Positions 32,013-41,774 are shown, counted from the first letter of the stretch. The stretch: DNA of 64,000 nt from Acidimicrobiales bacterium (GCA_963667505.2 OY763490.2:3312343-3376342), one strand, 5' to 3'. A program made the numbers and translations. The notes: a model not told the origin generated them from the letters alone.

Positions 32013-35000
32013 CTATTGACGGCTGCGGGGCTTCACCCAGTAATGCTGGCGTTGGAACGGGTAGAGCGGCCCGGCCACACGGCGCCGCACTTCGTCCCGG
32101 TACAGCTCTTGGAAGTCGACGTCCCGTCCGGCCTCGTAGTCGACGCGGGCCGCGGCGACCAGCGGATCGTCCGTGGCAAGCGCGGGCGGAGCGGCCTCCG
32201 GTCGGTCCGGGTGCGCCACCGCCTCGAGCCCTCGGCGCAGCGACTCGGCATCGCTGAACACCACCGCGGCCCGATGGCCGAAATGGCTGCGGCCGACGCT
32301 GGCCGTCCAGGCCAGGTCCGACAGCACGGAGTCGGCGTCGGCGGCGCCGGTTGTGAGCCGATCGCGGTTCTCGTCGAGCCACGACAGGTAGCGCCGGGCC
32401 AGATCTTGCAGAGCCTCGGGCGCTCGGCCGGACAGCGGCAGCAGCCTCGGCCGGGGCGGGTCCGGCGATTCCCCGCCGGAGCCGGGTTGGGTGCCGGGAT
32501 CAGCCCGGACCGGCGCGACGGGATGCGGAGAGCCGGCCGGCCAAGCGCCGGGACCGTGCCGCTGGGGGGCTCGGCCAGCCTCGGCGTATCCCTCCAGTAC
32601 GACGTGCGCGTTGCCTCCCGAGATGCCGAACGAGTTGACCCCGGCCCTGGGAGGACGGCCGCGGCCGGCGGGCCAGTCGGCCTTGGCCGACGTCACCCGC
32701 ACCGGCAGCCGGTCCCAGTCGATCTGAGGGTTCGGGTCCTGGAAGTTCAGATGGGCCGGTATCACTCCGGTGCTCATGGCCAGCACGGCCTTGATGAGGC
32801 CCGCCACTCCCGACGCGTACTCCAGATGGCCGATGTTGGTCTTCACCGAGCCGACCAGCAGGGGCCGCTGGGGATCCCTTCCCCGCCCGTACACGGCCAT
32901 GGCCGCGTCGATCTCGGCAGGGTCGCCCATCTTCGTGCCCAGGCCGTGGGTTTCCAGGTAGTCCACCTCGGAGGGCGCGACGCGGGCCCGGTCCAAGGCG
33001 TCGGCGATGGCCCGCTGCTGGGCCCGCCCGTTGGGAAGGGTGAGACCCAGAGTGGATCCGTTCTGGTTGACCGCCGATCCGAGGACCACGGCCCAGATCC
33101 GGTCGCCGTCGGCCTCGGCGTCGCTCAGCCGCTTGAGGACCATCATCCCGCAGCCCTCGCCCCGCACGTAGCCGTCGGCCGCCGCGTCGAAGGTCTTGCA
33201 GCGCCCGTCGGGCGACAGCAGCCCGTGGTCGGTCAGGAACCGGGTCATGGTCGGGGACAGGGCCGCGTTGACCGCTCCGACGAGGGCCAGGTCGATCTCG
33301 TCACGTTGGAGTCCGACGACGGCCTGGTGCACGGCGGCCAGCGCCGAGGCGCAGGCCGTGTTGACCGGCATGGCCGGGCCCTCCAGTCCCAGCACGAAGG
33401 CGATCCGCCCCACCGTCGCGCACCCGGCCGTGCCCAGCGAGGTGTCGTCCCGGCCGCTGGCCGCGATCACCCGCCGGTACTCGCTGTCGCCGACTCCGGC
33501 GTAGACGCCGGTGCGGGAGCCTTTGAGCCGGGCCGGATCGATGGCCGCGTCCTCGAGGGCGTGCCAGGTCGTCTCCAGCAGCATCCGCTGGGCGGGGTCC
33601 ATCATGCGGGCCTCGATGGGCGAGATGCGGAAGAACCTGGAGTCGAACCGGTCGATCCCGTCGACGAACCCGCCCCGCCGGCAGGCGGCGTCCTCGGAGT
33701 CGGGATCGCCCACGACCCCCGGTCCCGGGCCGCCGTCGGGGCGTCCGTCGGTGACGGCGTTCGAGCCGGTCTCCAGCAGGCGCCAGAAGGCCGACAGGTC
33801 CTCCGCTCCGGGGAAGCGGCAGGCCATGCCCACGATGGCGACCTCGTCGCCGGTTCGGCGGACCGGCCGGTGCGGACGCTCTCGGTCTGCTCGCTCCGGT
33901 TCGGGCTGGGCTTGGGCCGCTGGTTCAGGCTCTGGTTCGGGCCGAGCCGCTGGTTGTGACTCTGGTTCGGGCCGAGCCGCTGGTTGTGGCTCCGGTTCGG
34001 GCTGGGCTTCGGCTTCGCTCACGGGCGCGAGCTCGCCGGCCAGGAAGCGGGCCAGGTCGGTCACGTCGGGGTAGTCGAACACCACCGTGTTGGAGGCCAC
34101 GTAATCGCCGGCGAAGGCGCGGTTCAGGCGGTTCCGCAGTTCCACCGCCATCAGGGAGTCCATCCCCAGATCGGAGAACTCCGCGGTGGGCGAGGGCTCG
34201 GTCGCCAGCCGCAGCACCGCCTGGAGCTCCCGCTGGAGGAACGACACCAGCACGGCCTCATGCTCGGACGCCGGCGAGCCCCTCAGCTCCGACATCAGAT
34301 CTTCCGTCGGAGCGGCCGAGTCGTCGGCGTCGGCCGACTCGTCTGTGAGCAGGTCCTCCAGGAACGGCGGGCGGACCTCGAACCCCTCGGCGTACACCGG
34401 CCAGTCCACCGCGGCCACCGTGGTCGTGGCGATGTCGGAGCGCACCAGCCGGTCGAACGCCTTCATGCCCTGCTGGGGCGGGATCCAGCCCTTGCCCGAC
34501 GCGGCCAGCCGCCCGGCCAGCCGCTCCCGGTGCTCCTCGGCCTCGCCGAGTCCCGACCAGGCGCCCCAGGCGATGGCCTGGCCCGGCAGGCCCCGGGCCC
34601 GGCGGTGGCGGGCCAGCTGGTCCAGGAAGGCGTTGGCCGCCCCGTGGTTGGTCTGGCCCGAGTTCCCCAGCACGCCGGCCACGCTCGAGAAGAGCACGAA
34701 CAGGTCCAGGTCGCGCTGCTCGGTGGCCCGGTGCAGGTGCCAGGCGCCGAGAACCTTGGGCCACAGGACCTTCTCGAACCGGGCCCAGTCCTGATTGGCG
34801 ACCGAGCCGTCCGACAGCACCCCCACGCTGTGGACCACTCCCGCGAGCGGCGGCAGGGCCTCGTCCATCCGGGCCAGCATCCGGTCGACGGCGGCCGCGT
34901 CGGTCACGTCGGCCAGCTCCACGTGCACGTCGATGCCTTGCGTGAGCAGTGCCTCGATGGTGTCGGCGGCGTCGGGATCGGGGGCTCGGCGCCCGTTCAG

Positions 35001-41774: not shown

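Follow-up and report, generated by a model that had tools for sequence, protein, structure and literature searches.

The 64,000-nucleotide stretch of DNA analyzed here over its whole length, which we call the window, comes from the genome of an Acidimicrobiales bacterium (GCA_963667505.2; OY763490.2:3312343-3376342) and contains a gene for a type I polyketide synthase (PKS) whose predicted product ends in a second ketosynthase (KS). The open reading frame (ORF) occupies positions 32013-41774 on the minus strand, its translation is 3253 aa long, and it belongs to an operon at 28892-48122 (minus strand) in which, by Pfam matching and analysis of GC content at third codon positions (GC3), the genes follow one another with short gaps or overlaps. 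The operon is stated to hold ten genes; the ordered list names nine, namely permease, permease, alpha/beta-hydrolase, permease, PKS, alpha/beta-hydrolase, PhyH-like halogenase, acyl carrier protein (ACP), and phosphopantetheinyl transferase (PPTase). On balance, we consider it probable that the operon encodes a lipid synthase of the Sup type ("sponge symbiont ubiquitous PKS"), with one and a half modules, neither truncated nor orphaned, in which the second KS serves a split module.

Domain organization of the polyketide synthase

A Pfam scan of the PKS gave the domain order KS1-acyltransferase (AT)-dehydratase (DH)-C-methyltransferase (cMT)-enoylreductase (ER)-ketoreductase (KR)-ACP-Pro/Glu-rich linker-KS2-linker domain-post-AT motif. 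All of these lie on the minus strand. KS1 covers aa 18-445 (window 40440-41723) and has no preceding loading domain; it is followed by AT1 (aa 582-885; 39120-40031), DH (aa 954-1263; 37986-38915), a Pfam methyltransferase match for the cMT (aa ~1475-1651; ~36822-37352), ER (aa 1929-2216; 35127-35990), KR (aa 2231-2407; 34554-35084), and the in-cis ACP (aa 2513-2578; 34041-34238), so that module 1 as a whole, from KS1 to ACP, extends over 34041-41723. The Pro/Glu-rich linker, read from the translation, takes up aa 2585-2635 and leads to KS2 (aa 2639-3065; 32580-33860), in which the catalytic residues C2808, H2943, and K2978/H2983 are intact. The remaining C-terminal tail (32013-32579) consists of a variable linker, a linker domain of the KS-AT type (PF16197, PF22621, PF22336; aa ~3110-3190), a deletion scar (aa 3191-3212), and the post-AT motif YPFQRQHYW at aa 3238, after which the protein runs to a TAG stop codon at 32013-32015; the C-terminus reads ...YPFQRQHYWVKPRSRQ-stop. 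The KS C-terminal extension and the CurL-like and RhiE-like KS-AT linker families were matched over aa ~3014-3190, and in the last 189 aa Pfam found linker families only, with no match to AT, PP-binding, or thioesterase (TE) domains. An exact look-up in the contig collection recorded no identical copy of the PKS protein.

A preliminary description of the gene, made by reading motifs, had proposed this architecture with an intact terminal KS followed by neither AT, ACP, nor TE, and had traced the linker after KS2 into YPFQRQHYW and the stop codon. Domain calling and translation confirm both statements, and the profile search that the description itself proposed as the way to overturn them, for an ACP or TE beyond KS2, brought no match. 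The residues that it named as C190, H985, S2540, C2808, H2943, and H2983 are confirmed; for the AT serine, S683 has to be corrected to S673.

The motifs of module 1 are kept throughout the family, in 61 to 68 homologs: DTACSS and HGTGT in KS1, GHSxGE in AT1, HxxxGxxxxP and DGCFQ in DH, EVGAGTGS in cMT, HAxxGGVG in ER, and LGMDSL in ACP. AT1 is intact and has the malonyl-type motif (A/G)(F/Y)HS in all 61 homologs. A feature that the earlier reading of the PKS overlooked is in the KR, where the position of the catalytic Tyr is occupied by His (H2377; codon at window ~34644-34646; context GQTNHGAANAFLD). H2377 aligns with the catalytic Tyr of the MAS and AmphB KRs, and the same replacement is found in 68/68 homologs, which otherwise conserve the triad (Ser and Lys) as well as the DH and ER motifs. 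Either the KR may be a functional His-variant ketoreductase, or the reducing loop may not work as assumed.

The protein terminus and the second ketosynthase

The C-terminus was compared across 66 homologous PKS genes from independent assemblies, including closed long-read chromosomes of metagenome-assembled genomes (MAGs). The stop codon lies 0-20 aa past a YPFQRRRHW-type motif in 61 of the 66; since the window gene stops at this family-conserved motif, the PKS is not truncated. Truncation or misassembly at 32013, which the preliminary description had named as the finding that could undo it, is thus not what the homologs indicate. An artifact of this kind, a gene truncated, frameshifted, or misassembled at 32013 whose real protein would continue as AT-ACP-TE, has in our judgment a negligible probability: in addition to the stop position shared by independent assemblies, no coding potential for AT, ACP, or TE was found downstream in any frame, the separate ACP gene aside, and GC3 remains high and uniform up to the end of the ORF. 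Read-through from the PKS into the hydrolase gene was also considered, as the two are in the same frame; two stop codons lie between them and the homologs are unfused, and the frame match is taken as coincidence.

The tails past KS2 fall into three length classes. The long class, 40 of the 66, has 339-436 aa (at least 384 in 38 of the 40) and comprises the linker domain, an AT-like segment, and the post-AT motif. In the medium class, to which the window PKS and 18 others belong (19/66; 164-197 aa), the linker domain is fused directly to the post-AT motif, while two sequences form a short class with ~25 aa, from which the linker domain is gone as well and in which the post-AT motif is still present ahead of the stop. 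Five homologs fall outside these classes: three run off their locus, and two lack the motif (by frameshift or otherwise). Both short-class genes, L009:18804-20150 and L011:18782-20170, are from Acidimicrobiia and represent the most reduced form in the series. The AT-like segment of the long class is a relic, recognizable to Pfam only at positions 2 to ~130 of the 319 in the AT model, and, in all sequences but one, its GHSxG motif has lost the serine (to GHGLGE, GQGLGE, GRDLGE, GSGTGE, and others). That sequence, in a Nitrospirales MAG (L077:12115-13323, minus strand), is the sole long-tail homolog with GHSLGE; Pfam stops recognizing its AT, too, after ~120 of 319 positions, and its AT2 may be the least decayed.

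The deletion in the Acidimicrobiia removes the AT relic exactly, and in a neighbor-joining tree of KS2, which has no bootstrap values and is indicative only, the medium class is divided among at least five clades that lie within groups of long-tail sequences. Most simply, the ancestor would have had a KS2-AT2 didomain whose AT activity was lost early, the relic then being discarded repeatedly. AT2 is apparently dispensable, because its Ser is lost, its profile match is partial, and the relic is deleted in 19/66 homologs. Between the window PKS and its closest relative, the core of the linker domain after KS2 is 65% identical, the functional KS1-AT linker 61%, and the deletion junction 27%. We therefore rejected the idea that the whole tail is under relaxed selection: the linker-domain core is as conserved as the functional KS1-AT linker, and only the junction is poorly conserved.

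KS2 itself is strongly conserved. Its Cys, both His, and Lys are kept in 66/66 homologs from about ten phyla, and its identity to the closest relative is 89%, against 91% for KS1. The HGTGT motif, kept in KS1 together with DTACSS and DPQQR, has drifted in KS2 to HGAGS, HGPGS, or HATGS (HGLGT in the window). The His whose loss is typical of a KS0 domain is present (H2943, as is H2983), and C2808 has not been exchanged for the Gln of a KSQ domain. KS2 therefore looks catalytic and appears to be under strong purifying selection.

All strong matches of KS2 in the PDB are KSs of modular PKSs or fatty acid synthases (FASs), and the best of them are of the cis-AT type: CurL (436 bits), DEBS module 5 (400 bits), and GfsA (384 bits). 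The trans-AT KSs PksL, PksJ, and Mgs score lower (355, 347, and 336 bits), in a ranking by bit score rather than a bootstrapped tree. The closest solved single KS is the CurL KS-AT didomain of the curacin PKS (4MZ0), which matches residues 15-556 of a 628-aa query made of KS2 and its tail, including the KS-AT linker, and the Pfam family CurL-like_PKS_C likewise matches the window PKS; in CurL, unlike in the window protein, linker domain and post-AT peptide are separated by a functional AT. Over its entire length, the same 628-aa unit can be aligned with the AT-less KS structures 4QYR, 4ZDN, and 4TKT. An AlphaFold (AF2) model of it (mean per-residue confidence, pLDDT, 74; predicted template-modeling score, pTM, 0.81) shows the tail as a compact alpha/beta linker domain, with block-mean pLDDT of 72-92 over model aa 481-570 and 65-90 over aa 571-610. 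The best global superpositions of the model are trans-AT KS structures, with template-modeling (TM) scores of 0.72-0.75 by query and 0.76-0.85 by target (0.75/0.80 for 4qyr), whereas among the superposed structures, sequence identity is highest to cis-AT KS-AT didomains.

The AT-less KS units of trans-AT PKSs, such as MgsE KS3 (4QYR), MgsF KS4 and KS6 (4ZDN, 4TKT), and PksJ KS2 (4NA1), resemble the window unit in that the KS is followed by an alpha/beta linker domain and a post-AT-type peptide, an AT being absent. They differ in that the window KS2 is by bit score nearer to cis-AT KSs than to those of the trans-AT clades, in that its cluster has no gene for a free-standing AT, and in that its AT-less state arose through recent cis-AT decay and deletion inside the family. 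Taking sequence and model together, KS2 is best described as a cis-AT-type KS that has apparently converged on the trans-AT shape through loss of its AT.

Related loci and the partner genes of the operon

The best matches of the KS2 region are metagenomic proteins, many of them named as coming from sponge MAGs, and several cover KR-ACP-KS-linker without an AT. One of them is encoded on a 44.7-kb contig (L001), where the PKS can be aligned collinearly from end to end with that of the window (55-57% identity) and is followed by genes for an 81-aa ACP, a PPTase, a hydrolase, and an NCS2-type permease. This PKS (L001:3175-12784) is called as two overlapping ORFs of 2279 and 927 aa with a junction at ~aa 2255 of the window protein, and the frameshift may be a sequencing error or mark a pseudogene. 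A search of GTDB species genomes with the hydrolase yielded at least 588 related loci, of which the best 80 were inspected. Almost all of these 80 are from sponge-symbiont MAGs, and together they represent about ten phyla (Acidimicrobiia, Latescibacterota, Dehalococcoidia/Chloroflexota, Gemmatimonadota, Acidobacteriota, Binatia, Nitrospirales, Dadabacteria, Thermodesulfobacteriota, Opitutales, and Gammaproteobacteria). Their usual arrangement is KS1-AT-DH-cMT-ER-KR-ACP-KS2 with genes for a free ACP, usually a PPTase, a hydrolase, and a permease.

The best locus matches are Acidimicrobiia of 'Ca. Aldehydirespirator', and the closest relative of the window PKS, with 80-91% identity per catalytic domain, is the first of two tandem PKS genes on a 'Candidatus Aldehydirespirator' chromosome (L011). 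The best relatives of KS2 and of the hydrolase are in sponge MAGs (SB06xx, COS, IRC, RHO, and APA bins and Ca. Poriferisocius), and the operon most likely comes from a sponge-associated member of the Acidimicrobiia.

The 80-aa ORF at 29686-29928, which the preliminary description had taken for an ACP, is indeed a free-standing ACP (PP-binding, E = 3e-7) on the same strand as the PKS. A free ACP gene, usually with one for an Sfp-type PPTase, accompanies the KS2-ended PKS in most of the 80 loci and lies directly downstream of KS2 in many of them. Its G(V/I)SS serine motif is kept in 71 homologs, and the window ACP is 45-76% identical to the ACPs encoded after KS2 in L001, L002-L012, and L082. 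The last gene of the operon, at 28892-29602 (minus strand), encodes a 236-aa Sfp/HetI-type 4'-phosphopantetheinyl transferase (Pfam ACPS and AASDHPPT_N; the NCBIfam HetI-like match is under the curated cutoff), and in most related loci a PPTase gene adjoins that of the free ACP. A scan of ORFs covering most of the 64-kb window with Pfam Acyl_transf_1 matched AT1 but no free-standing AT gene, and the ORFs scanned in the remainder of the window include no FAS genes.

Two genes for alpha/beta-hydrolases (both Abhydrolase_6) flank the PKS gene or lie near it. Paralog 2, at 30978-31976 (minus strand), probably has its true start at the ATG at 31880, which gives 300 aa, because its homologs (2657 at E ≤ 1e-20) are mostly 300-303 aa long. 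Paralog 1 (310 aa; 43610-44542, minus strand) is 66% identical to paralog 2 and 58% to the L001 hydrolase. The HS(V/I)S nucleophile elbow and the motifs DPTLP and THFLQ are kept in 82 sequences, and a hydrolase profile search of the PDB gave only weak matches to generic alpha/beta-hydrolases, the best with E = 3.5e-5.

Between the ACP gene and hydrolase paralog 2 lies a gene (30002-30985, minus strand) for a PhyH-like Fe(II)/2-oxoglutarate radical halogenase of the BtnX family, which matches BtnX (PDB 9pv1) over its full length with E = 9.4e-119 and the CurA halogenase (3nnf) with E = 7e-28. BtnX, described in 2026, has a 2His-1Gly iron site and introduces chlorine at C2, in biotin as well as in many other carboxylic acids in their free form, fatty acids among them; Gln119, Ser120, and Arg248 bind the carboxylate, and exchange of the Gly for Asp or Glu turns it into a hydroxylase (PMC13489965). 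The window protein keeps the H-V-G, the Gln, the Ser, the second His, and the Arg, which are conserved in its homologs; its motifs WHVGVQSFG, HRS (second His), and LRF (Arg) align with BtnX, so that both the 2His-1Gly site and the carboxylate-binding Gln/Ser/Arg are present. As with hydrolase paralog 2, the listed ORF start of the halogenase is probably too far upstream; the recorded window protein has 322 aa, about five codons fewer than the TTG-started ORF.

Homologs of the halogenase with 62-94% identity are common in sponge MAGs. In three of the four lineages checked, the gene is in or beside a sup-type cluster: in Acidimicrobiia at L082:10001-10969, syntenic with the window; in Gemmatimonadales at L083:10001-10996 (L083/L084); and in Nitrospinae at L087:10001-10978 (L087/L088). 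A further homolog at L018:2433-3368 is likewise in or beside such a cluster, while in the fourth lineage, on an Acidobacteria contig, it is located away from one. One homolog (P0258) has H-x-E, the hydroxylase form. BtnX of Dinoroseobacter shibae (Dshi_3684; PDB 9PV1/9Q04) differs from the window enzyme in that its gene adjoins a biotin energy-coupling factor (ECF) transporter and it is proposed to act on free biotin. Because the window halogenase is encoded inside the PKS/ACP operon, its substrate is probably the PKS product, free or ACP bound, and the recurrence of the gene suggests that some sup products may be halogenated or hydroxylated beside the carboxylate.

The other genes of the operon encode three NCS2/xanthine-uracil-type permeases (minus strand): paralog 3, the first gene (602 aa; 46314-48122; Xan_ur_permease, E = 1.9e-33), which is 35% identical to the L001 cluster permease; paralog 2 (582 aa; 44561-46309; E = 3.2e-38); and the SupE-like paralog 1 (582 aa; 41842-43590; E = 1.9e-36), whose NCBIfam pbuX/ncs2 matches fall under the curated cutoff. 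A permease gene adjoins the PKS gene in most related loci. The window thus has three permeases and two mutually 66% identical hydrolases for one PKS, and the closest relative (L011:1-20480) has two complete sup-type PKS genes in tandem; the window layout looks like the merger or partial loss of tandem clusters.

Downstream of the PPTase gene, before an amidase gene, a PIN-domain toxin and a FitA-like ribbon-helix-helix antitoxin are encoded at 28185-28816 (minus strand). This pair looks like an insertion, because in the syntenic L082 the amidase gene directly follows that of the PPTase. GC content between 28 and 32 kb, from the toxin-antitoxin pair to hydrolase paralog 2, is 0.60-0.68, below the 0.73 of the PKS gene. 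The flanks of the window (1-26000 and 48300-64000) hold mostly catabolic genes and transporters, among them at least three Rieske ring-hydroxylating oxygenase alpha subunits, a xanthine-dehydrogenase-like molybdoenzyme, a hydantoinase B, amidases/amidohydrolases, a 2-oxoacid dehydrogenase E1/E2 set, and a methenyl-H4MPT-type cyclohydrolase (MCH; 19213-20211), with no evident link to the PKS operon.

Probable Sup family membership, the proposed split module, and alternatives

The preliminary description had treated the terminal KS as an orphan peculiarity of this gene. The comparison shows it instead as the family-wide design of a widespread sponge-symbiont cluster that matches the published sup cluster. 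The sup genes supA-supE go back to Fieseler et al. 2007 and Hochmuth et al. 2010 (cited in PMC3908369 and PMC4245539); in metagenomic PKS libraries from sponges they are the dominant kind, and they are widespread in, and restricted to, sponges of high microbial abundance (PMC3908369, PMC4245539). The encoded PKSs have been described as "unusual, small monomodular," with mid-chain methyl-branched fatty acids as the product proposed in the literature (PMC4245539), and SupE of clone pAPKS18 is listed as a permease (PMC3908369). The window PKS is likewise a small, essentially monomodular, fully reducing, C-methylating type I PKS by its Pfam domains, its closest relatives are all in symbionts of high-microbial-abundance sponges, its cluster has permeases, its family is abundant and diverse (at least 588 loci), and its proposed product class is the same. 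Permease, ACP, PPTase, and hydrolase are together in one operon in the window and this set is kept in related loci; in the papers cited, SupE is the one Sup protein documented as a member of this set, namely as a permease. Presumably, SupA also has a second KS and is followed by separate genes for ACP, PPTase, and hydrolase. Set against the published Sup cluster, the window lacks the AT relic after KS2, has three permeases and two hydrolases, and carries an inserted BtnX-type halogenase; the Sup architecture type is already known, and within it the window displays the C-terminus without AT relic, duplicated accessory genes, and an embedded halogenase.

KS1 keeps DPQQR and HGTGT, the targets of the standard degenerate KS primers quoted in PMC4245539, and KS2 deviates at both (MDPAQR and HGLGT in the window, HGAGS or HGPGS in relatives). 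What PCR surveys of diversity in "supA" have sampled is therefore probably KS1 alone. We also considered a pimeloyl-ACP or biotin-precursor synthase, an idea prompted by a BioH-like label on the hydrolase, the "biotin halogenase" relative, and the L001 neighbors, which include a class I/II aminotransferase and a CbiA/BioD-like gene. It was dropped, as neither the window nor L082-L088, the other loci with inspected gene calls, have such neighbors, the label on the hydrolase is unspecific, and BtnX is promiscuous for carboxylic acids.

The best-supported model, drawn from domain content and synteny, is that KS2 would form a split second module with the free ACP. KS1 would be primed with a fatty-acyl starter, and module 1 would add one malonyl unit, C-methylate it with S-adenosylmethionine (SAM), and reduce it fully to a 2-methylacyl-ACP. 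KS2 would then take over the chain and condense it with malonyl on the free ACP, loaded by AT1 or FabD, and the chain on the free ACP would be processed further by the reducing domains of module 1 or by the type II FAS. An acid would be released by the alpha/beta-hydrolase, the BtnX-type enzyme would in the window organism halogenate this free acid beside its carboxylate, and the permeases would carry the product, or a substrate, across the membrane. A split module using the 80-aa ACP in trans had been suggested in the preliminary description and gains comparative support from the ACP gene that accompanies the PKS in most of the 80 loci. Its companion suggestion, an AT acting in trans, is half right: with no free-standing AT among the window ORFs scanned and only a dead AT after KS2 in relatives, the simplest malonyl donor for the free ACP would be either AT1 in the PKS itself or cellular FabD.

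Several points weigh against this reading. We found no biochemical data on any Sup-like family member in the literature. The preference of KS2 for the free ACP over the in-cis ACP and the loading of the free ACP by AT1 are deduced from sequence, and the model fixes neither the starter, the chain length, nor the number of iterations. The free ACP gene of the window is not adjacent to KS2, as hydrolase and halogenase genes intervene, and full reduction would depend on the His-variant KR shared by 68/68 homologs. The assignment to the Sup family of the type clones pAPKS18 (Aplysina aerophoba; SupE, ABE03914) and pSW1H8 (Theonella swinhoei) is made by architecture, gene content, and sponge-MAG relatives; none of the homologs and cluster members is named SupA-E, their names being "alpha/beta hydrolase" or the automatic JGI label "pimeloyl-ACP methyl ester carboxylesterase."

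The facts that one active AT and one reducing loop serve two KSs, that a long, flexible Pro/Glu linker joins the ACP to KS2, and that KS1 has no loading domain would also suit an iterative two-KS synthase, in which KS1 and KS2 share the in-cis ACP, AT1, and the reducing loop, each KS handling a different chain length or the methylated versus the unmethylated round. The free ACP would then be a starter carrier, or a hand-off carrier for release and halogenation, rather than the partner of KS2, and in the window, as in L082 and L083, its gene does adjoin that of the halogenase. Iterative MAS and highly reducing PKSs (HR-PKSs) have the same order of domains. MAS is a KS-AT-DH-ER-KR-ACP reducing module that makes methyl-branched saturated chains from a fatty-acyl primer; its KR is the best solved match to the window KR (154 bits), and its KS-AT matches the KS2 unit with its linker (319 bits). 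MAS differs in taking its methyl branch from methylmalonyl-CoA without a cMT, whereas the window PKS has a malonyl-type AT1 and an embedded cMT, in lacking a second KS or free ACP, and in having Tyr where the window KR has His. We consider the iterative scheme unlikely: the ACP gene lies directly after KS2 in most loci, which is the usual collinear layout of a split module, the ancestral KS2-AT2 with its ACP gene resembles a formerly complete minimal module, and no data favor iteration.

Nonelongating KSs are common in AT-less architectures, namely trans-AT PKSs, and KS0 domains typically lose the HGTGT His. KS2 might accordingly be a transfer or gatekeeper KS that takes the finished chain onto its Cys and hands it on, either to the hydrolase or to the free ACP, performing no decarboxylative condensation, which would agree with a second half-module that has no functional AT in any lineage and with the drift of HGTGT in KS2 but not KS1. 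The retention of both His and Lys in 66/66 homologs across about ten phyla points instead to selection for decarboxylation and condensation, and makes a pure transfer role quite improbable in our estimate. Still less probable, to the point of being very doubtful, is chain fusion or off-loading by a pyrone- or lactone-forming KS2, the other role that the preliminary description had allowed and that finds no support here. Its terminal position and the missing TE domain would invite it; yet the chain-fusing KSs CorB and MxnB are stand-alone, FabH-like (KS III) enzymes, whereas KS2 is of type I (ketoacyl-synt N and C domains), is fused into the PKS, resembles ordinary elongating KSs (CurL, DEBS, GfsA), is 51-52% identical to KS1 of the L001 PKS, and is accompanied by a conserved alpha/beta-hydrolase available for release.

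Far from a singular anomaly, the terminal KS is shared across the family and comes with an evident partner gene. Sup-type PKS genes, known since 2007, dominate PKS surveys of sponge microbiomes, and their product has stayed unproven for nearly twenty years. The strong conservation of KS2 in spite of a dead or deleted AT means that any mechanism must explain a KS-only half module with a free ACP, and the Tyr-to-His change that the KR shows throughout this PKS family provides a further handle. As a tentative possibility, a subset of sup clusters may make alpha-halogenated methyl-branched fatty acids (alpha-hydroxylated where the Gly is Glu), with the halogenase recruited in at least three phyla; separately, and with the same reserve, the family may record a stepwise decay of a cis-AT module from KS-linker domain-AT through a dead relic and KS-linker domain to a bare KS, converging on the shape of trans-AT KSs while the KS stays active and a single AT serves two carriers. 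The AT-loss series would then be one of the few natural examples that show how a KS unit without AT can arise from a cis-AT module, and the recurrence of the halogenase in the operon predicts a searchable product class, 2-halo or 2-hydroxy branched acids.

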